64,000 nt of DNA, taken from an uncultured Desulfobacteraceae bacterium (GTDB taxonomy: Bacteria; Desulfobacterota; Desulfobacteria; Desulfobacterales; UBA11574). Below the pieces are notes generated by a model, which was not told the DNA's origin, made no database searches, and saw only the letters and a list, made by a program, of their open reading frames with translations. The translations under genes and the position numbers were made by a program. Positions 3,385 through 37,446 of this stretch are shown piece after piece. Within the stretch, counting starts at the first letter, position 1; each line of letters starts with the position of its first letter. Location: assembly GCA_964410925.1 (NCBI GenBank), contig CAYPIW010000086.1, positions 17,605 through 81,604 on the forward strand, in the 5' to 3' direction.

Positions 3385-4149
3385 TTATTGGATGAATTTT
3401 GCTGCCCGGCATACGTCGCAACATGGCGGCGGCAGTTCTATTTCCCGAAATACCAAATTCAGGGCGTCGAAGGTCAACAGCCGCCCGAGCAGAAGTTTTC
3501 CGCCGCCGGTCAGGAATTTGACGGCTTCAGCGGCCTGAAGGGTTCCCAATATGCCGGGCACCACCCCCAGAACCCCGACTTGGTCGGTGGAGGATACCTG
3601 ATCCGGTTCGGGGATGTTGCCAAACACGCATCGGTAACAGGGCCCTTGACCGGGTACGATGGTCATGACCTGGCCGAACATGCCTAAGATACCGGCATGA
3701 CAAAAGGGCACCCTGGCATGAATGCATATATCGTTGACCAGAAATTTGGCGTCGAAATTATCCGTGGCTTCGATCACGAAATCGTACTCTTTTACCAACT
3801 CGTGGCCGTTTTTTGCAGTAAACCGCTCGCCGTACGGCTTAATGCAAACATCCGGGTTCAGACGATGCAATTTATCCTGTGCGGAGTGGATCTTCAGCTT
3901 GCCCAGATCCTCCGAAGTATGCAAAATCTGGCGCTGCAGGTTAGACAGTTCGACTCGATCCCCGTCTACGATACCGATAGTTCCTACGCCGGCGCAGCCC
4001 AGATAGAGTAAGGCAGGACAGCCCAACCCTCCGGCGCCTATGACCAGGACCCGACCCTTTAAAAGTTTTTGCTGTCCGGTCATACCGATTTCCGGCACCA
4101 GAATATTGCGCGAATACCGAATCTTCTGGGTTGGGGTCAAATCTTTCAT
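3385..4149 (-). CDS. thiF: ThiS/MoaD adenylyltransferase (E1-like)
   Basis: Rossmann motif VIGAGGLGC typical of ThiF/MoeB, plus CxxC pairs (CYRC, CDVC). The likely start is MKDLTPTQ at 4149. Confidence 0.8.
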
Positions 4150-4205
4150 CCGATCCTTTCCTGCGGGTTCCGGACAGCGAGGCCCTCGGTCGGCTGCCAA
4201 TTCCG

Positions 4206-5483
4206 TTAAAGCATGATACGATCAAACGTCTTAATCGCGCAAAGATCACCGCACATGGTGCAAACATCCCGATCATGATCTTCGGTCTGCATGCGGCGCT
4301 TGCGGGCCAGATTCGGGTCGATGGCCTGGCTATACATGGTTTCCCAGTCGAATTTTCGTCGTGCCAGGGACATCCTCCGATCCCAGTCACAGGACCCCGG
4401 CAGCCCCTTTTCCAGATCGCCGATATGAGCCGCAATACGCGTGGCCATGACACCGTCATGCACATCCTGGACCGTAGGCAGATGCAAGTGCTCTGCAGGT
4501 GTCAGATAACACAAGAAATCCACACCGCTGGCCGCAGCTATCGCTCCGCCGATGGCACCGACCAGATGATCGTAGCCAGGAGCAATGTCCGTGGGCAACG
4601 GCCCCAGCACGTAGTATGGTGCGTTGTCGCAAACGCGCTTTTGTAATTGCACATCCCCGGCAATGCGTCCCAGCGGAACATGTCCGGGACCTTCGATCAT
4701 TACCTGGACACCCTCATTGCGGGCGCGTCTCGCCAGATCGCCCAAAATCAAAAGCTCTGAAATTTGGGCACGATCTTCCGCATCATGGATGGCTCCGGGG
4801 CGCAGTCCATCCCCCAAAGACAGGGTAACATCATGTTGCCGGCAGATTTCCAACAAACGATCGTATTGGGAAAACAGGGGGTTTTCCTTTTTATTGGCGG
4901 TGATCCATTCGGCGATAAAGCTGCCGCCACGAGACACCATGCCCATAATCCGATTGCATCCCTTGAGGGCACTTAAGCTTTGTCGGGTGATACCGCAATG
5001 CACCGTTATGAAATCGACTCCCAGATCGGCCTGCGTCTCGATTTCCTCCATAAGGTCGTCTGCGGTCATCTGTACAGGAGTTTTGTGATTTGCCATCAAC
5101 TTGCTGACCACTTTATAGATTGGAACGGTGCCTACCATAACCGGGGAGTGTTTCAATATGGTTTCCAGTATGAGGTCTAAATTTCCGCCGGTGGAAAGGT
5201 CCATCACCGCATCCGCACCGGCCGCAACCGCGGTATCGAGTTTGACCAGTTCTTCTTTCAAATCATGGTGGCTCGGTGAAGTGCCGATATTGGCATTCAC
5301 CTTGGTTTTCAATCCCTGGCCGATGCCGCGTGCTTCAAAATTCCGGTTTCGGTTTTTGGGAATCACCACCACGCCGGCGGCTACTTTTTCTCGAACCTGT
5401 TCGGCGCTTAGACCCTCCTTTTGGGCAACCTGATGCATGGCCTCTGTAATCCGATTGCTTCGGGCCGCTTGAATCTGTGTCAT
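4206..5483 (-). CDS. thiC: phosphomethylpyrimidine synthase
   Basis: ThiC-like throughout, with the C-terminal Cys motif CTMCGDLC. The start is set to MTQIQAARS at 5483, which has a GGAGA ribosome-binding site upstream. The 55 codons upstream in the track look non-coding. Confidence 0.9.
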   Translation of the reverse strand: MTQIQAARSNRITEAMHQVAQKEGLSAEQVREKVAAGVVVIPKNRNRNFEARGIGQGLKTKVNANIGTSPSHHDLKEELVKLDTAVAAGADAVMDLSTGGNLDLILETILKHSPVMVGTVPIYKVVSKLMANHKTPVQMTADDLMEEIETQADLGVDFITVHCGITRQSLSALKGCNRIMGMVSRGGSFIAEWITANKKENPLFSQYDRLLEICRQHDVTLSLGDGLRPGAIHDAEDRAQISELLILGDLARRARNEGVQVMIEGPGHVPLGRIAGDVQLQKRVCDNAPYYVLGPLPTDIAPGYDHLVGAIGGAIAAASGVDFLCYLTPAEHLHLPTVQDVHDGVMATRIAAHIGDLEKGLPGSCDWDRRMSLARRKFDWETMYSQAIDPNLARKRRMQTEDHDRDVCTMCGDLCAIKTFDRIML

Positions 5484-5664
5484 TTCATATCTCCGTTCGT
5501 TGCGTTTTTCCCATTTTATGGGATCCGAAGGCCAGGTACTGCATTTTTGGCCTGAAATGCCGGGTTCCTTGATTGTGTTGAGCAGTGAGAAACCCGGGTT
5601 GAATAGAGGTGTTATCTGGTCGGATGGCAAAAAGGCGGCGATCGGCAAGCAAATAAATTGTATT

Positions 5665-5700
5665 AAAAAAAAAGCCGTTTTTTTGAATAAGAAAACGGCA
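5665..5700 (-). terminator. intrinsic terminator (expression platform of the TPP riboswitch)
   Basis: On the minus strand the sequence reads gccgttttcttattcaaaaaaacggc followed by a run of 9 T. It lies directly 3' of the riboswitch aptamer. Confidence 0.65.
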
Positions 5701-5721
5701 TGGACAATAACATCCGAATCG

Positions 5722-5814
5722 CATGCCCGTTTCCCTTCGCAGGTATTACCCTGATCAGGTGGTTAAGGGTTGTCCCTTGCCGGACTCTCAGATGATACCA
5801 ACACCCCTAACGAG
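5722..5814 (-). promoter_or_regulatory. TPP (THI-box) riboswitch aptamer
   Basis: The minus strand reads ggggtgttggtatcatctgagagtccggcaagggacaacccttaaccacctgatcagggtaatacctgcgaagggaa. This contains the conserved GGGGUG, CUGAGA, ACCCUU, ACCUGAUC-GGUAAUACC and GCGAAGGGAA blocks. It lies upstream of thiC. Confidence 0.9.
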
Positions 5815-5983
5815 ATAATACCATTCTAAATCCAACTGATTCGGTTGTCAAGAGATCTTTGTTTAAAGTGATACGACACTCAATAAACTAATTTTGTTGA
5901 AGTCATATATTGTGAAGGTTTGACATTGAACCGTAAATGTTTATTTTTTTAACACTTATCATAAACAACTACAGGAGGAATTC

Positions 5984-10070: not shown

Positions 10071-11045
10071 TCACATGACAAAAATTAAAACCAGAGCGAT
10101 CACCAGTGAATAGATTCCGGTGGATTCGGAAACCGCCTGGCCTACCAGCATTGTTCTTACTAACTCTGCACTATTATTCTGATTTTTTCCTACCTGATCC
10201 ACTGCGCTGGACGCTGTCAGTCCTTCTCCGATTCCAGGACCAATAGCACCGACCCCCATGCATAAACCCGCAGCAAGTAAGGCCATGGCAGGTGCAAAAG
10301 TGTTTGTTGCCGGAAAGGTTTTGAACATCAGTATAAAGCTTATTAAAAGTCCGTATATGCCTGTTGTTTCAGTAACCGCCATTCCCAAGAGCATACTACT
10401 TGTCGAAGGTGTCGCTGCCGAAGGTTGCCTGGCCACCACCTTACAGCAGGCACCCGCAACCAAACCTTCGCCAAAACCCGGACCGGCGGCAGCTATTCCG
10501 CACGCAAGCCCTGCCCCCAGAACAGCCGCCCAGGTTGGGGAAAGGGGATGACCGGAGAAATCTAAATTTAAAAGAATAAGAGAAGTTACCAGAGCATAGA
10601 TTGCGGTTGTTTGGGCTATTGATGAACCCACCAGCATAATTGTGTTCAGGCGTTTGGTCATTGACGGCTGGCGTGCTATTCCGGCACATGCTTCGGCCGC
10701 AGGGAACCCTCCGCCCACACCTGGACCTATGGCTCCGAATCCCATACATAAACCGGCCCCTATATAAATTGGCACATTGATAATCGACGGATGGGGGTTT
10801 TTTAAAAACAGCAACATCATCGCAACGATCAGGCCGAAAATCCCGGCTGTCTCGGCAATGGCCTGTCCCACCAGCATGGTTTTAAAAATTTCACCTGACA
10901 TCTGGGGATTGCGCGATATGGCCTCATTGGCCTTGGAAGCCGCATATCCTTCACCAATTCCTGCTCCAATGGCGCTCAAACCCATGGAGATTCCGCTTCC
11001 CACAAATGCAGCCACATTTATCCAGATATTCATATCATATGACAT
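10071..11045 (-). CDS. fused ATP synthase c subunit with four tandem hairpins (about 8 TM)
   Basis: 324 aa containing four c-subunit repeats. The motif pairs are GAGIGEG/AIAETAGIF, GPGVGGG/SIAQTTAIY, GPGFGEG/AVTETTGIY and GPGIGEG/AVSESTGIY. It lies between atpB and atpE. Confidence 0.85.
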   Translation of the reverse strand: MSYDMNIWINVAAFVGSGISMGLSAIGAGIGEGYAASKANEAISRNPQMSGEIFKTMLVGQAIAETAGIFGLIVAMMLLFLKNPHPSIINVPIYIGAGLCMGFGAIGPGVGGGFPAAEACAGIARQPSMTKRLNTIMLVGSSIAQTTAIYALVTSLILLNLDFSGHPLSPTWAAVLGAGLACGIAAAGPGFGEGLVAGACCKVVARQPSAATPSTSSMLLGMAVTETTGIYGLLISFILMFKTFPATNTFAPAMALLAAGLCMGVGAIGPGIGEGLTASSAVDQVGKNQNNSAELVRTMLVGQAVSESTGIYSLVIALVLIFVM

Positions 11046-19868: not shown

Positions 19869-20873
19869 TTATTTGATACCATCTTTATAGTAGCGTGACG
19901 GACCGTTCCAGATGTCCCAATTGCTTTCCTGAAAAATAGATTTGCAGCTACTAACGGTTTCACCTCTGCCTTGTTCTGTTTTTTCCTTTATATCTCGTGG
20001 ATTGGCTCCGACTTCCGCCCAGAAGAGATTTGCCCCGGCGATTGCGCCTAAAGTACAAGGCTCATGCGTACAGTTGCCCGTCACAGATTGTGGCATTCCC
20101 AGTCTGGTAACCGCGACGATTTGAGCCATACGCATCTCGTTGATTACCCCGCGTTTGGCTATCGCGGTTCCGGGTATGGGGATCCGTCTGGCTGCGCCGC
20201 TGTATGAGGGATTGAAGGAAGCCGTGAATTCTATCATCTCAGCCAGCTCTTCGTTCGTATGTTCCGGCCCCACGGGCTCGACGCAGGTGCCTACTTCAAG
20301 ACCGGCTTCCTTGAAGTTTTTGATACTCTGTTTTCTCTTTTCCACCGAAAGTCCGGTGTCTATTCCCTCGCGCAGCCGAACGGCGTGATACACGCCGGAA
20401 AAGCCCGCCTCCCTGAGCCGGATTGCATTCTTATGAGACTGGTCTCCGACGTTAGCGATCAATGTTGTTTCGGGCTTCAGGTTTTTTTTAACCTCCCTCG
20501 ACATTTCTATGAAGCGTTCAAACGGGTATCTGGCCGTTGACATCATGAATACGGCATTCGCGCCGTCATTTTCAAACTGGCGGGCATAGGCCACGGCCTG
20601 CTCCGGGGTCAACTCTGTCGTCGCGCTGAAGATACCATTGATCTCAGCGAAAGAGCAGAACAGACAGTTGCAAGCACACGGTGCGAGATTGACAGCGAAT
20701 TGAGCATGGACTTCGGCCTTGCCGCCTGACAGCTCTTTGGAAACACGGGTCGCCTCAGCCATGAGCAGATAATTTTCAGCAGAATCCGGCGCCCGGCTGA
20801 GCAGGTAGACAAGTTCTTCTCGTGACAGCACATCGCCCGCCCGAGACTTCTTTATCAGTTCGTCAATATGCAC
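19869..20873 (-). CDS. radical SAM protein, BioB/HydE-like
   Basis: 334 aa with the cluster motif CACNCLFCSF (CX3CX2C). The TIM-barrel-like remainder resembles biotin-synthase-family enzymes. Substrate unknown. Confidence 0.6.
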   Translation of the reverse strand: MHIDELIKKSRAGDVLSREELVYLLSRAPDSAENYLLMAEATRVSKELSGGKAEVHAQFAVNLAPCACNCLFCSFAEINGIFSATTELTPEQAVAYARQFENDGANAVFMMSTARYPFERFIEMSREVKKNLKPETTLIANVGDQSHKNAIRLREAGFSGVYHAVRLREGIDTGLSVEKRKQSIKNFKEAGLEVGTCVEPVGPEHTNEELAEMIEFTASFNPSYSGAARRIPIPGTAIAKRGVINEMRMAQIVAVTRLGMPQSVTGNCTHEPCTLGAIAGANLFWAEVGANPRDIKEKTEQGRGETVSSCKSIFQESNWDIWNGPSRYYKDGIK

Positions 20874-21369: not shown

Positions 21370-22194
21370 CTAACCGATGACACTCCCGAAGTCGTTAGCG
21401 GTAGCCCCACCCAACGCCTGTGATTCTTTCCGTAACAAGTCCCCGATCGATCCAATCCCCTCCGGAAGCTTCAAACGAATTCGCTCCCTGATGTTTGGCG
21501 GAGCATAGTTCTCGCTCAATTTTTGCAGAAGTTTGTCCGTTTGGAGGAGGCGAATAGTATTTTCACGCCAGATGATCAGATCCTCTTGCAGCGTTTTCAA
21601 TGCCTTGGAAACCGTAGAAAGGCTCATGGCTTTCTTATCCCAGCATTCTACCAGCAGGTTCCGTTGGTTGATTTCTGCGCAGACATCTTGAACGGTATCG
21701 TACTCGGGGCGAAGGAGAAAGACCCGTCCAACTATGGAACTGTTTTTCCTATAAATATTCTTGATTGGTGCAGAAGAAGTAAAGCGGTTTTTTTCGCCGC
21801 CGCGGAACACGGCGAACATTTCCTGAACAACCACCACACCGTTTCCACACAGATCGATGCCACTGATCTTCTCACGCTCCAACTCCTGCAATTGCCGTTC
21901 ACTAAGAAACGGCACGAATAGCAGAGGCCGACAGCCCTTCGGAAGCGACGATGTTTTCAGCAGGTTGAGCCCATCCTGAAACGCCCTGGACGTGGAAAGC
22001 GATTTGCATTTTACAGCGAACTTTGCTACGCTCTCACCCCATGATGCCTCAACCAGTGCATCGAAACGCAGGTTTCCCCCTGCTTGTGGCCCGGCCTTCA
22101 ACAAACGAAAAGAGATCGGGGGCAGCAAAACCCTTCCCATTCGGAGCTGTTCGATCATCTCTCTTTCAGTTGGTATTTTCCTGATTCTTTCCAT
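21370..22194 (-). CDS. hypothetical protein (possible PD-(D/E)xK-like core plus C-terminal HTH)
   Basis: The start is moved to MERIRK (22194) because the first 50 codons of the track ORF overlap repeat copy A. Weak motifs only: FDALVEA...FAVKCK and MSLSTVSKALKTLQEDLII. Confidence 0.35.
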   Translation of the reverse strand: MERIRKIPTEREMIEQLRMGRVLLPPISFRLLKAGPQAGGNLRFDALVEASWGESVAKFAVKCKSLSTSRAFQDGLNLLKTSSLPKGCRPLLFVPFLSERQLQELEREKISGIDLCGNGVVVVQEMFAVFRGGEKNRFTSSAPIKNIYRKNSSIVGRVFLLRPEYDTVQDVCAEINQRNLLVECWDKKAMSLSTVSKALKTLQEDLIIWRENTIRLLQTDKLLQKLSENYAPPNIRERIRLKLPEGIGSIGDLLRKESQALGGATANDFGSVIG

Positions 22195-22273: not shown

Positions 22274-22430
22274 GCACCCCGATAAGTTACTGCCGATTCC
22301 ATAATACTCACAACCTTCCTTAAAAGGCTCATTTTTGGGGCCAAAAAGAGTGGTTTAAGACGATTTTAGGGCCTGTCTCAGGCTTGTTTTGCTGTTATTA
22401 TGGATGGTTACCGTGGTCCGACCCCGAGCG
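22274..22430 (+). repeat. inverted-repeat-bounded element, copy A
   Basis: It shares the core gtggtttaaga-gatttt-gggcctgt...gttattat...ggttaccgtggtccga-cccgagcg with copies at 27478, 28064 and 26626 (the last degenerate). The left end is ccccgataagtt...cataat. Confidence 0.75.
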
Positions 22431-22924
22431 TACCCCGAGCGTGCGCCTGAACGTGGCGATTCCGGCGGGGTCGCAGTCTCCCCGGGGCTTCATATATCCC
22501 CCGACTCACTTCCAGTAAAGAGATAGGGACGAATGTAGGATGGAGAAGGCCGCTGAAAGTTGCCGCCGTTTTGCTCTGGCGGTCCAGTGCCCTCATTCTC
22601 GCAGTTCCGAGCACTCCTTGCCATAGTGCTTGATGACTTATACCATTTAACCAGTGTGGTTTACATTAGATAGTCTCGATTTTTAGAAATTATTTAGAAT
22701 CCCATATATTGTGGTCTGCCTAAAATTTGAGAAATGCAGATACCTTATCGGAATTTTATCTCTGAAAATTTCTGTGATTTATTGAGACTATAGCACGAAA
22801 ACGGACCATTGAAAAGCGTGTGCTTTCTTACAATAACGACATTGTTCGCTACAAAAATTTATATTCAAATATCATAATTTTCAACTGTCAAATGAATTCT
22901 GTTTTTAACAATTAGTCTGATCTT

Positions 22925-23266
22925 CTATTCATCCCATGACCAGGCCACCTTAACAAATTCAATCTCATCATTATTTAACGCTCTATCCTTTCCTATCCCA
23001 TGCCATTTCTGAATACAACCCCAGCGACAAGCAGCCGGGGCATGCTGAGCAATGAAAACCGGGTGCCCTCTCATTGGGGTCTGTTCGCCATCATTTTTTG
23101 GATGCTGGGGAGCAATTCTTTTGGAAATGAAATCATGAGCGTGCTGTCTGATTGTATCAATACCTTTATTTTCAATATACTGTCGCTCTTTTTCTGCCAG
23201 TTTGAAACTTGATCTGAACTTTGATATTTTCGGCTCTTTCAGAATTTGAAATGTCCGGTATGTCAT
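22925..23266 (-). CDS. DUF4186-family protein
   Basis: 113 aa. The central block MRGHPVFIAQHAPAACRWGCIQKWH matches my recollection of the DUF4186 signature. Confidence 0.55.
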   Translation of the reverse strand: MTYRTFQILKEPKISKFRSSFKLAEKERQYIENKGIDTIRQHAHDFISKRIAPQHPKNDGEQTPMRGHPVFIAQHAPAACRWGCIQKWHGIGKDRALNNDEIEFVKVAWSWDE

Positions 23267-23458
23267 CTGCTGGTGTCCGGAAATTATTTTTCTCTTGAAT
23301 CTAAACCATACAGAATAGTCTTCAGAATCGGAATAGTTGCAGTCAACAGGAATTTGTGATATGAATTTTAAGCTAAGAGAAACAGTTTATTCAACAATTT
23401 TATTTACTGTAATATTATTTAAAATGATAAAAGCTGAAGTTGAGAAAGCGTAAAAATT

Positions 23459-24283
23459 ATGAGCCTGTTAACCGTAGATCAAGAGAAATGTGAGCGTGAC
23501 GGTATTTGTACTGAAGTTTGCCCTGCGGGAATCATCGAATTTAAAGACAAAGATGCTTTCCCCACCCTTGTCGATGGCGCAGATAGAATGTGTATCAGAT
23601 GCGGACATTGTGTTGCTGTTTGTCCGCACGGTGCCATGTCTCATATAACTATGAAACCAGAAGAGTGCCCACCGGTGAAAGAAGACTGGTTATTTGACCC
23701 GGAACAAGTCGAACATTTTTTACGCTATCGAAGGTCTATAAGAAACTACGAGAAAAAACAGGTTGAGCAAGAGGTTCTGACAAAATTAATTAATGCAGCA
23801 CGATTTGCCCCTTCCGGACACAACCGCCAACCTGTCAGATGGCTGGTTATATATAAAAGGGATGAGGTTCAACGAATGTCTGGATTCGTTATTGATTGGA
23901 TGCGATACTTAATTAAAGAAGATTCTCCACTCGTTTCTGCAATGAACCTGAATCGAGTCGTTGCTTTCTGGGAAGGCGGGAATGATCCCATATGCAGAAA
24001 TGCACCACATATTATCCTTACCTATGCTCATAAAGATGATGTAACAGCTCCGACCGCTTGCACTATTGCCTTAACATACTTGGAACTGGCTGCTCCGTCT
24101 TTTGACCTTGGGACATGTTGGGCCGGTTATTTTAATGCAGGAGCAACTTTCTGGCCGCCAATGCAAGAAGAACTGAGACTCCCTGAAGGAAATGTTAGCT
24201 TCGGATCAATGATGGTAGGATATCCGAAATTTAAATATCAAAGACTGCCGCTCAGAAATGATGCCAAGATAATGTGGCGCTAA
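23459..24283 (+). CDS. ferredoxin-domain/nitroreductase-family fusion protein
   Basis: Two 4Fe-4S motifs sit at the N-terminus (CERDGICTEVCP, CIRCGHCVAVCP). A nitroreductase-fold region follows (RRSIRNY, ARFAPSGHNRQP). Confidence 0.8.
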   Translation: MSLLTVDQEKCERDGICTEVCPAGIIEFKDKDAFPTLVDGADRMCIRCGHCVAVCPHGAMSHITMKPEECPPVKEDWLFDPEQVEHFLRYRRSIRNYEKKQVEQEVLTKLINAARFAPSGHNRQPVRWLVIYKRDEVQRMSGFVIDWMRYLIKEDSPLVSAMNLNRVVAFWEGGNDPICRNAPHIILTYAHKDDVTAPTACTIALTYLELAAPSFDLGTCWAGYFNAGATFWPPMQEELRLPEGNVSFGSMMVGYPKFKYQRLPLRNDAKIMWR

Positions 24284-24300
24284 ATCTAAACATGATTAAA

Positions 24301-24870
24301 CTACATCAAAAACACTCCATATTTCTTCATTTTTTTACTCATCTCTTTGGCATTTCCCACAAACTTATTTAATTCCGCCCAAAATCTCTTGGTGTGATTT
24401 TTTATCCGGGTATGAACGAGTTCGTGTAACAGGACATAATCAATCATTTCATCCGGCAACCTGACCAGCTTCATGTTGAGGCTAATATTATTTTCGGAAG
24501 AACAACTCCCCCATCTGGTCTTTTGGTTTCTCACGGACACCTTGTTATAGCGAAAACCGTGCTTCTCGGACAATTCACTAAGCCGGTTAACCAGTTTTTT
24601 TCTGGCTTTTGCTCTGTTGATTTCAGGCAGATACTTTGAAAAGGCTTCATGTTCCTTTTCCACGTCTTTCATTTTATCCAGATGTTTTTTTATCCAGTCC
24701 TTTTTGGATTGTGCAAATTGCCTGGCGTTATCAAATGATACTCTATAAGGAACGGCCACTCTTACGCCTTTAAATGGTTTTACAGAAATTCTAATATATT
24801 TTGACCGGTTACTGCGCTCAAACAAAACCTTACCAACACTATCAATTTCAATGAGTTTAGATTTCGTCAT
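24301..24870 (-). CDS. YgjP-like (DUF45/M48-type) zinc metallopeptidase
   Basis: 189 aa with RWGSCSSENNISLNMKLV and the HExxH motif LHELVHTRIKNHTKRFW. Confidence 0.75.
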   Translation of the reverse strand: MTKSKLIEIDSVGKVLFERSNRSKYIRISVKPFKGVRVAVPYRVSFDNARQFAQSKKDWIKKHLDKMKDVEKEHEAFSKYLPEINRAKARKKLVNRLSELSEKHGFRYNKVSVRNQKTRWGSCSSENNISLNMKLVRLPDEMIDYVLLHELVHTRIKNHTKRFWAELNKFVGNAKEMSKKMKKYGVFLM

Positions 24871-24898
24871 TTAACAACTCGCAACACATGGGTTTCCC

Positions 24899-25090
24899 TT
24901 ACCACTTTGGCCTTTTCCGTCTGTCTTTGTAAACAAGTTCCAATTTGTCCAATATAGCATCAGCCACAAACTCCTCAATCGGTATATTTCTTCCGGTACA
25001 AAAATTCTTTAATCTTTCAAGCAATCCTTCATACAGGTTAATGCTTAGCTTCTCAGCTTGGATTTTTTCAGGTGCCGGTTTCTTTTCCAT
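24899..25090 (-). CDS. small hypothetical protein (possible ribbon-helix-helix)
   Basis: 63 aa. The beta-alpha-alpha pattern is suggested by KLSINLYEGLLERLKNF...IEEFVADAILDKLE. It is tightly packed between YgjP and a small TM protein. Confidence 0.35.
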   Translation of the reverse strand: MEKKPAPEKIQAEKLSINLYEGLLERLKNFCTGRNIPIEEFVADAILDKLELVYKDRRKRPKW

Positions 25091-25253
25091 GGTAATCCTT
25101 TCTTTTGCCTAAAATGATAAAAGGCAGGGCAAACGGGCCGAACAAAATTCCCATGATAAACCAGAATTGTTTATTATACCCTTTCCGGCCAGCCAGATAA
25201 TAACACAGCACTCCGAAAAGCAATGAAATAAGAATAACGGCTGCAAGTTCCAT
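25068..25253 (-). CDS. small two-TM membrane protein
   Basis: 61 aa with two hydrophobic helices (AAVILISLLFGVLCYYLAG, FWFIMGILFGPFALPFIILG). It overlaps the downstream ORF. Confidence 0.4.
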   Translation of the reverse strand: MELAAVILISLLFGVLCYYLAGRKGYNKQFWFIMGILFGPFALPFIILGKRKDYHGKETGT

Positions 25254-25260
25254 TCAGTTA

Positions 25261-25959
25261 TCATTCAACCTTTTCAACATATTCCAGAATAGCCTTAAAT
25301 AACGAAGCACTGTGGCTTATTTGCTCATATGCTTCATCTCTGGTTAACAACCTTTTCTCATCTTCAATTTGATATCCTTTCTTGAGTGAAAGGTTGGCAA
25401 TTCTGGCGATCTTATTTGTCAGATCTTCTTCAGAATCTATTTTTATGGGGTAGATTTTGATCCTGTCCATATTATCCAGAACTTCATCGTTGATTATCCC
25501 ATCTGTGGTTTTATGGTACTTACGATTGTATGAATTGTATAAGGTGTTATGAAGCGGTTGGGAAAGATCACCGACATAATGGGTACAAAAGCCAAGATGA
25601 TATTCACCATACTTACCTTCATGTCTTGCTTTTAAATAATCCCGAACTGAGGCTATGATAGCACCATAAAGATGGCCGATTGGATCATTTGTTGTGTTAT
25701 ATTTTTTTACCTGCTGGAGAACCATTGCTGGAGTTACAACTGTTCCTCTCGGGTTATTCACATAATGATTCTGCTTTTCCAAATCCCCAGCCTTCAATTT
25801 AGACATGTCGGCACCGGTGGCATTGTACCATTTCTTATACCCCGTGGCTTTTGCTATGGCTATGTGGATTTCATCATGCCATGGATATGAGTTGTCAGAA
25901 AAACTGATTACAAAGAAAATTGAAAGAAGGGTAATGATGGGATACTTTATTGCTTTCAT
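25261..25959 (-). CDS. secreted S1/P1-nuclease / zinc phospholipase C superfamily protein
   Basis: Signal peptide followed by W-H (SYPWHDEIHIA). The S1/P1-type metal motif is HYVGDLSQPLHN. Confidence 0.55.
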   Translation of the reverse strand: MKAIKYPIITLLSIFFVISFSDNSYPWHDEIHIAIAKATGYKKWYNATGADMSKLKAGDLEKQNHYVNNPRGTVVTPAMVLQQVKKYNTTNDPIGHLYGAIIASVRDYLKARHEGKYGEYHLGFCTHYVGDLSQPLHNTLYNSYNRKYHKTTDGIINDEVLDNMDRIKIYPIKIDSEEDLTNKIARIANLSLKKGYQIEDEKRLLTRDEAYEQISHSASLFKAILEYVEKVE

Positions 25960-25967
25960 TTACTTTT

Positions 25968-26201
25968 CTATTTGTTTCCCTTGGTTCCCGAACAGGTGAA
26001 TGCCTTGGAAATCATTTTAATATAAGGCCCCTTATCTATACCAATGTATTTCCCACAAGAGCATTTTATTTTTCCATCTTTATTTAGCTGAGAATAAATT
26101 TTAATGATTCGATCTTTATGACATCTTAAAACTTCACCGGAGCCAACCTTGTCATATTTCCAGAGTTTCTTTTTACATGCAGCACATCTTATGACTAACA
26201 C
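25968..26201 (-). CDS. small zinc-ribbon protein
   Basis: 77 aa with Cys pairs CAAC...C-H and CSCG. It lies 9 nt from the downstream gene. Confidence 0.4.
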   Translation of the reverse strand: MLVIRCAACKKKLWKYDKVGSGEVLRCHKDRIIKIYSQLNKDGKIKCSCGKYIGIDKGPYIKMISKAFTCSGTKGNK

Positions 26202-26213
26202 AATGCCCTCAAA

Positions 26214-26642
26214 TTATTTGCGTTGCCCCCATTTGGATTTCAGTCTCAAATATTTCCTGGTAAGCTCAGGATCTCCCCAAATATTCAGCTTCTCTTTCCG
26301 GGCCTGCTTCTCGGCGGTTAGAAATTGAGCATCGTATTTTTCACTCTTGCCATACTTGATGTAATACGGTGATAACCCCTGCCTGACGAGATCTATGTTT
26401 AAATTTTTACCGTCTAAAAATACATAAGCCAGAAGCCTTCCATGATTTCCTCGTATTCTGCCCATTTCAAATCCAAGGTCAACATATTTGCCATATTCAT
26501 CGAGAAGTTTCTTTTGCGTAACCTTGGGGACAAGGCGGTAATAAATTTTTTCTATGCCATGCTGAAGGGTATAACCTTTTGTTATCTTAATATATAACGT
26601 CCATTGGAATATTGGTTGACGATGTGGATCAGACCACGCTAA
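26214..26642 (-). pseudogene. thermonuclease (SNase)-family remnant
   Basis: The last 83 aa match the SNase C-terminal core (HGRLLAYVFLDGKNLNIDLVRQGL...AEKQARKEKLNIWG). The frame stays open 59 codons further upstream with no ATG, GTG or TTG and no recognisable Ca/catalytic motif. It runs into repeat copy D. Confidence 0.5.
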
Positions 26643-26844
26643 CTATCTGATAATCTGTAAAAAAGCTCAAAAAATGGCCGTTTTTTGGTCTTCAGCATAT
26701 CATTTTGGATGGAAAATAACCGGCTTAAGAGATTTTAAAGATCGTCTAGTTTTATAAACAAAAGCAACCTTGTAATATTTCTTTATTCGCCTTTGCCAGA
26801 ATACCTTACAGGTTGTTGGAGTAAAACGGAAATCCCGCACAGCG
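26626..26844 (+). repeat. inverted-repeat-bounded element, copy D (degenerate)
   Basis: The left end ggatcagaccacgctaactatctgataat matches copies B and C. The interior (ggcttaagagattttaaag) and right end (ggttgttggag...cccgcacagcg) are diverged versions of the core. Confidence 0.55.
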
Positions 26845-27249
26845 GGGCTGCGGGGAGCTTCATCAAAACAACAAAACCCCACCTCTCTATGTGAGAAACG
26901 GGGTTCATGGTCTGCAACATATGTGTTCTCCCTTATCCTAAATAGTGCCTGAACGAAAACTGTCTTTTCCGCCAATATCTGCGCCTTGTGAAATGCGGAG
27001 CCTATTTCTCTGGGGTCAGACTCTAATTTTAATCCTCGAAATACTACCAGTATTCCTGTCTGCCCCGTAGGTCCGGCAGATCGTACTGGGATGGTTAAAA
27101 TTTTCGTCTTTCCCTACGGGCCGGAGGCTTGATCTTAACGAAAAACCCTGGTTTTCGTTCGGGCATTATAAGTTGAGGAAAAATTCGAACATTACGGGCA
27201 ATTTTACTCCTATGAAATATTATGTCAAGGAATTTAGGATATTAAGAAT

Positions 27250-27399
27250 GACGCCTTCGTAAAAAGTCCAATTTCTGCGTTGCGCTTCATTTCATGTTCA
27301 CTGCGGCGTACATCAGTACGCCTCATTCCACGAAATTCGCAACGCCTTTTTATCCAAAGAGATTTGTTCGGGGGAACTTGAACTTTTTACTTTGCCGTC
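27250..27399. repeat. nested palindromic (rod-like) element of unknown function
   Basis: The outer arms are gacgccttcgtaaaaagtcc / gaactttttactttgccgtc. The middle stem is gcgttgcg / cgcaacgc. The apical hairpin is ggcgtac-atca-gtacgcc. There is no ORF. Confidence 0.6.
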
Positions 27400-27477
27400 T
27401 CAATTTTAACTTTTTACAAGTTCATCAAGAATGATTGCTAAAGTTAACAAAACCAAATCATTTGTATCTATCCAATG

Positions 27478-27611
27478 GGAGCCGAATACGCTAACTGTCT
27501 GATAATTCATAAAAAGAGGTTGCGAAATGAAAGGATTAAGAAGATTTTAGGGCCTATTTTAAACTTCTATTGACAATATTATGGGTTGTTACCGCGACCC
27601 GATCCCAAGCG
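27478..27611 (+). repeat. inverted-repeat-bounded element, copy B
   Basis: Left end gggagccgaatacgctaactgtctgataattc, core ggattaagaagattttagggcct, right end attatgggttgttaccgcgacccgatcccaagcg. Confidence 0.75.
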
Positions 27612-27636
27612 TTTCTTCTTTTGATTTATTCATTTT

Positions 27637-27930
27637 TCAACGGCTGAATATGCTTTTTCCCTTGCAGATGTGTAAGCCACCTTTCAGCGCCCCTCCCTCT
27701 GTTCCTGGTTGTAAGGTAACTCGCCCTCCGGATTCAAATACAATATCTGTCTTCATCAATCTCCCTGAAACATAATCTGATGAAAAGCACAGGCATTCGT
27801 TCTCGAATTCAAGGCCCTGAACAAAATATTCAAGGTTCCATTCTTCGTCCGGAATAAAATGCATTTCGGAAATGCCCCGTGGTGCTGAATATGAAAATGA
27901 CATCAATGATAGGGCAAACAAGACCCCCAT
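27637..27930 (-). CDS. hypothetical protein (possibly 5'-truncated)
   Basis: 97 aa with no family recognised. The reading frame stays open 36 codons upstream of the ATG with protein-like sequence (ADPGRIKEITVNTYHRIIFQIKEEEPDLWA) but no start codon. Confidence 0.35.
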   Translation of the reverse strand: MGVLFALSLMSFSYSAPRGISEMHFIPDEEWNLEYFVQGLEFENECLCFSSDYVSGRLMKTDIVFESGGRVTLQPGTEGGALKGGLHICKGKSIFSR

Positions 27931-28063
27931 CGCCCATAAATCAGGTTCTTCCTCTTTTATCTGGAAAATAATTCTATGGTAGGTGTTGACGGTAATTTCT
28001 TTGATTCTACCCGGATCGGCACCCCGATTTTCGAATTCTTACCGGTATACGCTTTGCTCGAAT

Positions 28064-28259
28064 GGGGAGCAGACCACGATAAGTATATGATAATTCAAAA
28101 TAAATATCAAAAAAATAGACGTTCTAAGGATTTTTTTTGAAATACCGTTCATCTTAACAGGGTCTTTTTGGCGCCCAAAAAAGTGGTTTAAGAAGATTTT
28201 TGGCCCTGTGTGGGCTTTTTTTGTTATTATAGCTTGTTAACGTGGTCCGATTCCGAGCC
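28064..28259 (+). repeat. inverted-repeat-bounded element, copy C
   Basis: Left end ggggagcagaccacgataagtatatgataattc. Internal hairpin tttttgg-cgc-ccaaaaa. Core gtggtttaagaagatttttggccctgtgtgggcttttttt. Right end gttattatagcttgttaacgtggtccgattccgagcc. Confidence 0.8.
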
Positions 28260-36331: not shown

Positions 36332-36480
36332 AAAAGCCTTCTTGTATCAATGGAAGTCTCGGATTTGTGCAAAATTCAAGTTCAAGGCGTCGCAAATTTC
36401 GTGGAATGAGGCGCACTCATGTACGCCGTAGTAAACACGGAATGAAGTACAACGCAGAAATTGGATTTTTTACAAAGCCG

Positions 36481-37446
36481 TCAAGATTTAAAAGGAAGTA
36501 TTACAGTAAACACCGACCCTTTCCCGCACCCATCGCTTTGAGCAACGACTTTTCCTTTATGAATCCGTGCAATATTCTGCACCAGGTGCAATCCGAGCCC
36601 GCTCCCTCTGGCTGTCATATCATCCGCCCGGCCTGACTGATAAAATTTCTTGAAAATTTTTTTGAGTTCCGTCTTTTCAATGCCGATCCCGTTGTCCTCA
36701 AATCGTATATGCAATCTGCGATGATACAACTTAAAAATAATATCTATCGTTGGTTTTTCCGAGTCATTATACTTAACCGCATTGATCATAAGATTCATCA
36801 AAAGCATCTCAAATAAAGACAAGTTAATACGATATGCAAAGGAGCGTCCTGAAGGATTATGAATATTGATTTTGCAATTTTGAAAAATATGGTCATTATC
36901 TTTAATAAATTGCTCAACCGTGGCCACAAGATCCGCTGTAACAAATTCTTCAGCATAAATCTTGCTCTCAATTCTTGCGAGATTCAGAATGCGGTGGATA
37001 TTTTCCGAAAGCCGTCCCACATCCTGAACCATGTAATCAAGATACGTTAACTGCTCATCACGGGCAAGTTCGTATTTTGTAAATGTTTCCAGATAAAGTT
37101 TTAACGAGGTAACCGGAGTTTTAAGCTCATGGGTAAAATTATTTATAAAATTGTTTTGCAGCCGGTAGAGTTGTATTATTTTTTGATTGTACACAAAAAT
37201 AATAAAAATCCCCACCAGAATGATTCCGACAAGAATCGAAAGTACCAGAATAACCACCCAGGTATCGGATTCCAAAAACTGCCCGGGGTCCAGGTTGAAT
37301 CTTCCCGCAACCTCCTTGAGCCCTGTGCTGACTTCCATATACCAGTAGATGTACAATACCAGGGATGTGGCCAGCGCTACGATGGAAAAAATAAAGATAA
37401 AAACGGGATGAAAAAACCATTTTGTTCGAGTTATTGCCCGTTCCAT
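36481..37446 (-). CDS. sensor histidine kinase
   Basis: Two N-terminal TM segments, H-box FTHELKTPVTSL, N-box LMINAVKYN, G-boxes DNGIGI and GSGLGL. Confidence 0.85.
   Translation of the reverse strand: MERAITRTKWFFHPVFIFIFSIVALATSLVLYIYWYMEVSTGLKEVAGRFNLDPGQFLESDTWVVILVLSILVGIILVGIFIIFVYNQKIIQLYRLQNNFINNFTHELKTPVTSLKLYLETFTKYELARDEQLTYLDYMVQDVGRLSENIHRILNLARIESKIYAEEFVTADLVATVEQFIKDNDHIFQNCKINIHNPSGRSFAYRINLSLFEMLLMNLMINAVKYNDSEKPTIDIIFKLYHRRLHIRFEDNGIGIEKTELKKIFKKFYQSGRADDMTARGSGLGLHLVQNIARIHKGKVVAQSDGCGKGSVFTVILPFKS

Follow-up and report, generated by a model that had tools for sequence, protein, structure and literature searches.

Genes related to those for REP (repetitive extragenic palindromic)-associated tyrosine transposases (RAYTs) that lie between long terminal inverted repeats have been described as TIRYTs, carried in TIRtrons; many have the motif GGGGWSAS, and their end repeats form moderately abundant families that occur as dimers or clusters (Di Nocera et al. 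2013, PMC3733652). Most TIRYTs belong to TnpA-Y1 subclass 2.1 (Quentin et al. 2018, PMC6006769), which is RAYT group 1 of Bertels et al. 2017 (PMC5581495). REP-like sequences were not seen near subclass 2.1 genes, the non-IS200 subclasses were described as being without typical insertion sequence (IS) features, and formal evidence of their autonomous mobility was reported as lacking (PMC6006769). Here we analyzed a 64-kb stretch of DNA (the window) from an uncultured Desulfobacteraceae bacterium, in which a first, sequence-only reading had pointed out four short elements bounded by imperfect inverted repeats, here called copies A to D. We consider it likely that these copies are decayed non-autonomous miniatures, a "TIR repeat" family resembling both miniature inverted-repeat transposable elements (MITEs) and REPINs, of an element whose autonomous form of ~0.93 to 1.15 kb encodes a Y1 HUH transposase of ~263 amino acids that is RAYT-like and of TIRYT type (putatively subclass 2.1, RAYT group 1).

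A profile hidden Markov model (HMM) made solely from nine intact copies of other genomes was run over the window. It matched exactly four places, copies A to D, and nowhere else. The copies and their parts are as follows.

22274-22317, plus strand: variant left segment (CACCCCGATAAGTTACTGCCGATTCC...) joined to copy A; not the canonical left end.
22318-22425, plus strand: copy A, a right half, delimited by HMM and sequence reading; HMM match at 22318-22427, HMM positions 133-241, 94 bits, E of 1e-27.
22421-22442, plus strand: tandem duplication over the right tip of copy A (ACCCCGAGCGT, twice), polymorphic.
26624-26749, plus strand: copy B, a left half only, with degenerate tip GTGGATCAGACCACGCTAAC, GATAAT box, and first core palindrome; HMM match at 26626-26749, HMM positions 6-133, 74 bits, E of 2e-21.
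27477-27606, plus strand: copy C, a short (130 bp), decayed, one-core copy with both ends present (GGGAGCCGAATACGCTAAC ... GTTACCGCGACCCGATCCC), read directly; HMM match at 27526-27608, HMM positions 159-241, 50 bits, E of 5e-14.
28064-28254, plus strand: copy D, 191 bp long and more complete than the others; both ends are present (GGGGAGCAGACCACGATAAG ... GTTAACGTGGTCCGATTCC), together with a single full core palindrome and a hairpin of terminator-like form; HMM match at 28112-28255, HMM positions 94-240, 87 bits, E of 2e-25.

All four elements of the sequence-only reading therefore exist, at approximately the positions it gave, with the amendment that A is only a right half and B only a left half. 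Its start for copy A, 22274, took in the variant left segment, and its end for copy B, 26844, took in 26750-26844, which belongs to an unrelated conserved block. The end and interior strings that it quoted are all present where it placed them (sequence reading of 20.5 to 30 kb), and the conserved GC hairpin followed by a T-run that it described is terminator-like in copies A (22369-22385) and D (28202-28216). Its inverse ends with GATAAT/ATTAT pairing are seen in the window and are not general in the wider family, whose consensus has GAAAAG against TTATTAT; that pairing occurs only in the window subfamily. A repeat search recovered families of three copies each, with 62 to 81% identity: the left end in B, C, and D, and, in A, C, and D, both the interior with the right end and the right end by itself. 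The short motifs by themselves barely exceeded chance (4 matches versus 1.1 and 0.9 expected; equalled in 3 to 4 of 100 shuffles).

Copy A contains a core palindrome (CTTAAA..TTTTTGGGGCCAAAAA..TTTAAG), a terminator-like hairpin, a TATTAT box, and the right inverted end (...GTTACCGTGGTCCGACCCC). The variant left segment before it lies upstream of a truncated AbiEi-like gene and is common to loci L022, L009, and L010, where ~130 extra bases stand before the right halves. Copy B is fused to a ~700-bp non-coding block, and its left half together with the block recurs in L030 and L163, the three left flanks being unrelated. The element tips are runs of GGGG and CCCC. Folded as a single strand, copy D has a weak predicted end-to-end stem (z of -1.81), and copy C folds no better than shuffles (z of +0.81). 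The four copies are real, worn-down, non-coding copies of a mobile element; since two are half-elements and one no longer folds, they are relics, and any present role of theirs as putative terminator or promoter modules would be incidental.

The family to which the copies belong is widespread. A strict right-end pattern found 34 loci in GTDB species-representative genomes, mostly metagenome-assembled genomes (MAGs) of Desulfobacterales or Desulfobacteraceae, with two loci in a Nitrospinaceae MAG and one in a Gammaproteobacteria MAG; single MAGs held several of the loci, and many were at contig ends. A left-end pattern (GGGGTCGGRCCACGCTAAG) found at least 120 metagenome contigs or loci. Plasmid and phage collections held no match to the element, a literature search with the end sequence gave no match, and an all-against-all comparison of the open reading frames (ORFs) flanking the 34 genome loci revealed no recurrent neighbor gene.

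Intact copies are ~235 to 245 bp long and near-palindromic. Their inverted ends of 24 to 30 bp begin GGGGTCGGRCCACG and read (ATTT)GGGGTCGGGCCACGCTAAG... on the left and ...GTTACCGTGGCCCGACCCC(AAAT) on the right, and the interior holds two core palindromes, CTTAAA-N6-TTTTTGG..CCAAAAA-N6-TTTAAG. The consensus left end of the family is ACGCTAAG, most members having TAAG and not AAC. The terminal inverted repeats of the element, 24 to 30 bp, have the form GGGGTCGGRCCACGCTAAG-N5-GATAAT-like, and in many subfamilies this end and box are followed by a spacer and a core palindrome. Nested inverted repeats run along the whole intact element, which is a nested quasi-palindrome, and the single strand of an intact copy folds into one long hairpin (z of -4.15; 0 of 200 shuffles as good). 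Single ends are not self-complementary, and the 5′ flank varies by subfamily (ATTT, AATG, or GGCT, and RTAG in one subfamily). Many members of the family consist of only a right half, a left half, or a solo right end of 55 nt, and the orientation of copies relative to flanking genes is mixed.

At a minimum of 10 loci, the left module directly precedes an ORF starting MARAKRHYIPGH(I/V)WHITHRCHKREFL, which carries an HUH motif (SNHIHLL) and a tyrosine motif (YIDLNMVRAG). The transposase-bearing elements are 0.93 to 1.15 kb long and their protein has ~263 amino acids. L056 is a complete 935-bp unit with inverted ends of ~30 bp, and L112 (1,146 bp) and L147 are further complete or near-complete units; in L087, a near-full-length ORF stands behind the left end, and the right end was not found there. 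In L056, L112, L147, and L166 to L178, the gene is bounded by long terminal inverted repeats, not by REP palindromes, and a total of 26 loci match the transposase as full or decayed copies. The protein matches Pfam Y1_Tnp (PF01797) at 38 bits (cut-off, 23) and the NCBIfam REP-associated tyrosine transposase model NF047646 at 75.7 bits, compared with only 18 bits for the IS200 model. Its best PDB match is 4ER8, E. coli TnpA-REP, aligned over the HUH motif and the tyrosine. A C-terminal extension of ~120 amino acids has no Pfam match at an E value of ≤0.01. This type of tyrosine transposase (IS200/RAYT) is common in sulfate-reducing bacteria. At least 7,918 proteins of ~263 amino acids belong to the family, mostly on ~1-kb contigs, with source names such as "putative transposase" or "RayT."

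A second, distant Y1-like ORF was observed in L032 (6378-7304), a locus from a MAG labelled Gammaproteobacteria. It has 26% identity to the TIRYT protein over residues 1 to 138 and lies 2.5 kb from a full-length miniature element; matching ends around this ORF were not found.

Internal-deletion intermediates connect the autonomous and the miniature elements. L157 (226 bp) retains the left end and module and ~30 nt from the start of the ORF, fused to a right end, and L076 and L083 (121 to 130 bp) are still shorter members of the same subfamily. The HMM of the miniature elements aligns ~110 nt into the ends of transposase-bearing units. An element with an identical transposase (P0215) measures ~934 bp from tip to tip and has the same terminal sequences in every locus read. 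It occurs in at least three left and at least three right flank contexts without direct repeats; its left flank ends GATTT in five contexts, and its right flanks are variable. No target-site duplication flanked any of ~45 copies bounded at both ends.

Adjacent copies mostly point the same way (32 of 36 pairs co-oriented, 32 to 4; p of 2e-6). In the 14.6-kb locus L050, six copies lie in one orientation among ordinary operons, with no integrase. The co-orientation fits strand-specific insertion at replication forks. The tips show a second regularity: a tandem duplication of 7 to 14 bp lies across 39 of 259 distinct tips (15%), compared with 1.2% at 20,000 random positions, and the duplicated unit consists of the last 2 to 9 nt of the tip and the adjacent flank. 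Comparison of the window with contig L001, which comes from the same population, shows a 16-bp indel placed exactly at copy A's right tip (22426-22446), and L174 and L176 differ by the same kind of tip duplication. Left flanks carry reiterated GATTT/GGGG units. Candidate causes of the tip duplications are offset cleavage and rejoining, tip-primed copying, and slippage at the hairpin base. The tip duplications and the co-orientation of neighbors are two features left unexplained.

By analogy with TnpA of IS200/IS605 and TnpA-REP of E. coli (PMC5027513, PMC6006769), the Y1 transposase would act in trans on single-stranded DNA. The two inverted ends would pair into a stem in the single strand, the enzyme would cut at the foot of this stem, and the strand would be moved or copied without target duplication. 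Since replication forks expose single-stranded DNA asymmetrically, strand-specific insertion at the forks would leave neighboring insertions co-oriented. A broader proposal, which we put forward tentatively and regard as possible rather than probable, is that TIRYT (subclass 2.1) genes in Desulfobacterota may constitute a very large active IS family with its own hairpin-MITE progeny, the tip duplications and strict co-orientation being footprints of a single-strand chemistry unlike the precise "peel and paste" of IS200/IS605 (e.g., offset cleavage or tip-primed copying).

Several points weigh against the assignment of the four copies to a TIRYT element. A tblastn search of the window with the Y1 protein returned nothing; as the window has no transposase gene, the copies are connected to a transposase through ends and architecture that they share with elements in other contigs, and the left-end pattern had picked its loci by those very ends. 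Among the transposase-bearing copies, none of the exact window subfamily (left end ...AAGTATCTGATAAT...) was found, and cross-mobilization is an assumption. The score of 75.7 for NF047646 is just under the curated cut-off of 80. Flank swapping among contigs could partly reflect chimeric metagenome assembly, and an empty-site search with joined flanks gave no empty/filled pair for the family, so that the boundaries and cleavage points are provisional. The tip duplications would not be expected under the classical, precise "peel and paste." We infer both the single-strand mechanism and the replication-strand bias, and a comparison of GC skew with element orientation in short loci gave no signal for replication direction.

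Of the alternative explanations, the one that survives best takes the copies as host-functional intergenic modules (bidirectional terminators, promoter-bearing leaders, a protein-binding palindrome, or a small RNA gene) that were spread by recombination and with which the transposase is only secondarily associated. It would account for the terminator-like hairpins in A and D, for interior palindromes that are strongly conserved over distant taxa, for a TATAAT-like box within the right end that points inward, and for the frequent location of copies 20 to 50 nt past stop codons. We nevertheless consider it improbable. The terminator hairpin is lost in many copies, the orientation relative to genes is mixed, and the elements decay freely, with halves, solo ends, and a copy C that no longer folds. 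Scored by pair counting, the named hairpins show sequence conservation and hardly any compensatory change; no consensus structure came from RNAalifold, and no Rfam family matched the elements in gathering or E-value mode. An RNA family, considered as a candidate in its own right, was rejected for the same three reasons: no Rfam match, no RNAalifold structure, and almost no covariation.

Less credible still, and in our view very unlikely, is a MITE of the classical kind, mobilized by a DDE transposase, such as a Tn3-derived inverted-repeat miniature element (TIME). Being small, non-coding, and multi-copy, with inverted ends, the copies would suit such an element, and the ends begin GGGGTC and contain CACGCTAAG, as do Tn3-family inverted repeats. 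The GGGG and TAAG motifs are, however, 19 bp apart rather than 38, there is neither a 5-bp nor any other regular target-site duplication, no DDE transposase recurs in the flanks, and the gene between matching ends is a Y1 transposase. Two other MITEs of the same island do have target-site duplications (6 to 8 bp), so duplications are detectable here. The sequence-only reading had offered a MITE with terminator-like content as its second interpretation, and this is upheld with one refinement: the partner is a Y1 (IS200/RAYT-like, TIRYT) tyrosine transposase, not a DDE enzyme. A transposase gene of the kind it had proposed to look for was found between the same ends in other contigs; the target-site duplications it had proposed to look for in the flanks did not appear.

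Two proteins were tried as mobilizing enzymes and rejected. The 320-amino-acid ORF beside copy A, considered as a recombinase, is a truncated member of the AbiEi-like family, whose homologues in L040 to L045 have no element nearby. A protein cluster recurring in the flanks of L020, L029, and L032, considered as a transposase, consists of ABC ATPases.

The remaining explanation, that the copies are integron attC sites in a cassette array without integrase (CALIN), used as folded single-strand sites by an IntI encoded elsewhere, is extremely unlikely and fails because there is no integrase nearby and homology does not stop at GTT. Copies B, C, and D mimic the R″-spacer-L″ / L′-spacer-R′ layout of attC, with ends TAAC-N5-GATAAT ... 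ATTAT-N5-GTTA and a non-complementary 5-nt spacer, and the copies are co-oriented and interleaved with small genes; the first reading had noted this resemblance, together with the absence of intI. That absence is borne out: the mid-sized window ORFs include no integrase or transposase, ten candidates among them being ATP synthase, DHH, GGDEF, caspase, and similar proteins, and no integrase family recurs among the 135 ORFs flanking 34 related loci or occurs in the six-copy locus. The family consensus has TAAG instead of AAC and lacks L-box pairing, and conservation continues ~20 nt past GTT to the CCCC tip. The window and L022 have in common a 1.1-kb block (copy A with the AbiEi-like gene) that is 91.6% identical and lies between unrelated flanks; this block stops 6 nt beyond the CCCC tip and not at G|TT. 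Intact copies have 235 to 245 bp, compared with ~57 to 141 nt for typical attC sites; half-elements and solo ends occur frequently; the copies face either way with respect to genes, also among ordinary operons; and the same ends enclose a Y1 transposase gene. According to the first reading, copies scattered genome-wide with target-site duplications would speak against attC sites; the scatter was found, and the duplications were not.

The window matches uncultured metagenome contigs (JGI 3300001335 and others). The region of 21 to 29 kb has a G+C content of ~0.38 to 0.44, compared with ~0.50 on its flanks, and holds small genes, mostly on the minus strand: a truncated AbiEi-like gene, DUF4186, ferredoxin-nitroreductase, YgjP-like metallopeptidase, S1/P1-like nuclease, a truncated SNase-like ORF, and cupin. 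The other features of the window are as follows.

5715-5818, minus strand: thiamine pyrophosphate (TPP) riboswitch, 60.9 bits, above the gathering score; the sole Rfam family in the window.
10071-11045, minus strand: ATP synthase c-subunit ORF, 324 amino acids; four PF00137 stretches, a fused multi-hairpin c subunit.
21370-22194, minus strand: truncated AbiEi-like gene (the 320-amino-acid ORF beside copy A); 274 of ~364 amino acids, with TAG where L022 has TGG.
26214-26620, minus strand: SNase-like ORF; only the C-terminal half of the Pfam profile matched (positions 47-106 of 107).
26750-27463: non-coding block on the left half of copy B; ~78 to 80% conserved with L030 and L163, with unrelated left flanks.
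About 26945-27167: third MITE-like element, ~223 bp, with inverted ends GTGCCTGAACGAAAAC / GTTTTCGTTCGGGCA.
27252-27427: second, unrelated MITE, 176 bp, with the 8-bp direct repeat AAGAATGA at 27244-27251 and 27428-27435.

The block after copy B has strong terminator-like hairpins on the minus strand (26906-26874 and 26846-26834), and the two other MITEs are nested in it. For the MITE at 27252-27427, L030 has the empty site, uninterrupted (TTAAGAATGATTGCTAAA). A paralogue of 100 nt, 87% identical, lies at 36384-36483 on the minus strand, between histidine-kinase and response-regulator genes, and pieces related to this MITE were observed in L013 and L092. The third MITE is present in L030 and absent from exactly that position in L163; in L020, a copy elsewhere is flanked by TAAATA. 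Window positions 26939-27170 had been considered as a structured RNA, which was rejected: L163 is without exactly that segment, identifying it as the third MITE, and it had no Rfam match.

The AbiEi-like family is very large, without a Pfam domain and with a weak match to AbiEi_2/winged helix-turn-helix. Elsewhere its genes are usually followed by an overlapping gene for a partner of 289 to 297 amino acids without a known domain. There was no PADLOC or NCBIfam match, and the two genes may form an uncharacterized AbiE-like two-gene module. The frame of the SNase-like ORF stays open upstream to a stop codon within the left end of copy B, which suggests a truncated or rearranged gene abutting the element. 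As separate observations, L001 differs from the window by a 34-bp indel at 25137-25170, inside a 61-amino-acid ORF (25068-25253), and the 324-amino-acid c-subunit ORF lies in an atp operon, adjoining two b subunits and an a subunit.

Locus L009, from the Eth-SRB2 MAG, contains a type I-F CRISPR-Cas remnant at 4091-5768: the C terminus of Csy3 (profile positions 214-328), Csy4, and a CRISPR array with repeat GTTCACCGCCGTACAGGCGGCTTAGAAA. The remnant sits between two inverted element tips, and its last repeat is broken off just before the reiterated tip flank. This truncated system between tips shows that the element repeats mark rearrangement breakpoints.

These results remove the integron-like puzzle of the window. 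Its island is a patchwork of defense and toxin-antitoxin-type genes with at least three families of miniature transposons, and the 130- to 245-bp hairpin repeats abundant in Desulfobacterales are now tied to an inverted-repeat-flanked Y1 tyrosine transposase. Such repeats break MAG assemblies as well as marking breakpoints, and they could pass for attC sites or small RNA genes. The identical transposase in several contexts and the series of internal deletions are in silico evidence for the movement of a TIRYT unit as a whole and for its giving rise to miniatures. The tip duplications and the co-orientation offer testable clues to DNA processing by RAYT-like enzymes.

Compared with known systems, the elements are furthest from attC/CALIN sites: they share a co-oriented position between small genes and, in some window copies, inverted ends that are imperfect and have an unpaired spacer, and they differ in having no conserved AAC...GTT pair, a boundary that is not at G|TT, a larger size, a Y1 partner, and no integrase. 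Like generic MITEs, they are short, non-coding, and multi-copy, with inverted ends common to an autonomous element, but they lack a target-site duplication. Tn3-derived TIMEs, defined by ~38-bp repeats, a 5-bp duplication, and a DDE TnpA, differ from the elements here in all three respects (19-bp spacing, no duplication, and a Y1 partner).

With IS200/IS605 and the palindrome-associated transposable elements (PATEs), the family shares a Y1 HUH transposase, the lack of a target-site duplication, and sub-terminal hairpins. The GATTT on one flank in five contexts recalls a fixed target tetra- or pentanucleotide, and the strong local orientation bias is what insertion into the single-stranded DNA of replication forks would produce (PMC5027513). 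IS200/IS605 elements, however, are without terminal inverted repeats and have a TnpA of ~130 to 150 amino acids, whereas the ends here are inverted over 24 to 30 bp, and tip-spanning tandem duplications are not part of precise peel-and-paste transposition. With the REPIN-RAYT system, the family shares intergenic elements that are non-autonomous and consist of two inverted units folding into a single hairpin, the absence of a target-site duplication, a partner Y1 gene flanked by the same units, and the NCBIfam RAYT model as the best protein match. Here, in contrast, the inverted units are not 20- to 40-nt palindromes tagged 5′ GT[AG]G, and the doublet has 130 to 245 bp rather than ~70 to 110 bp. 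A REPIN-associated RAYT gene is single-copy and vertically inherited, whereas the transposase here appears, from the contigs examined, to be multi-copy and IS-like. The elements work like REPINs or PATEs, yet they fall outside the definitions of classical REPINs and of IS200/IS605, which are excluded because there are no GTAG-tagged palindromes and because inverted ends are present, respectively.

The closest counterpart is the TIRYT/TIRtron system, which likewise has a RAYT-like Y1 HUH gene between long terminal inverted repeats instead of GTAG palindromes, a protein longer than the IS200 TnpA with a C-terminal extension, and ends that also form a dispersed repeat family in dimers and clusters. 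The C-terminal helix-turn-helix or Bac_DnaA_C-like domain reported for subclass 2.1 was not detected here with Pfam. In the published view, the end families are only "moderately abundant" and formal evidence of mobility is missing (PMC3733652, PMC6006769); the unit here differs in being IS-like, with variants numbering in the thousands on contigs of ~1 kb, several contexts, and numerous decayed copies, and in having a clear series of 120- to 250-bp hairpin derivatives. The kind of element is nevertheless already known. Window copy D (GGGGAGCA) agrees with the published motif GGGGWSAS at 6 of 8 positions. Since the ends here (GGGGTCGG) agree with it at 7 of 8, we file the window copies as non-autonomous members of the TIRYT-associated family of end repeats.

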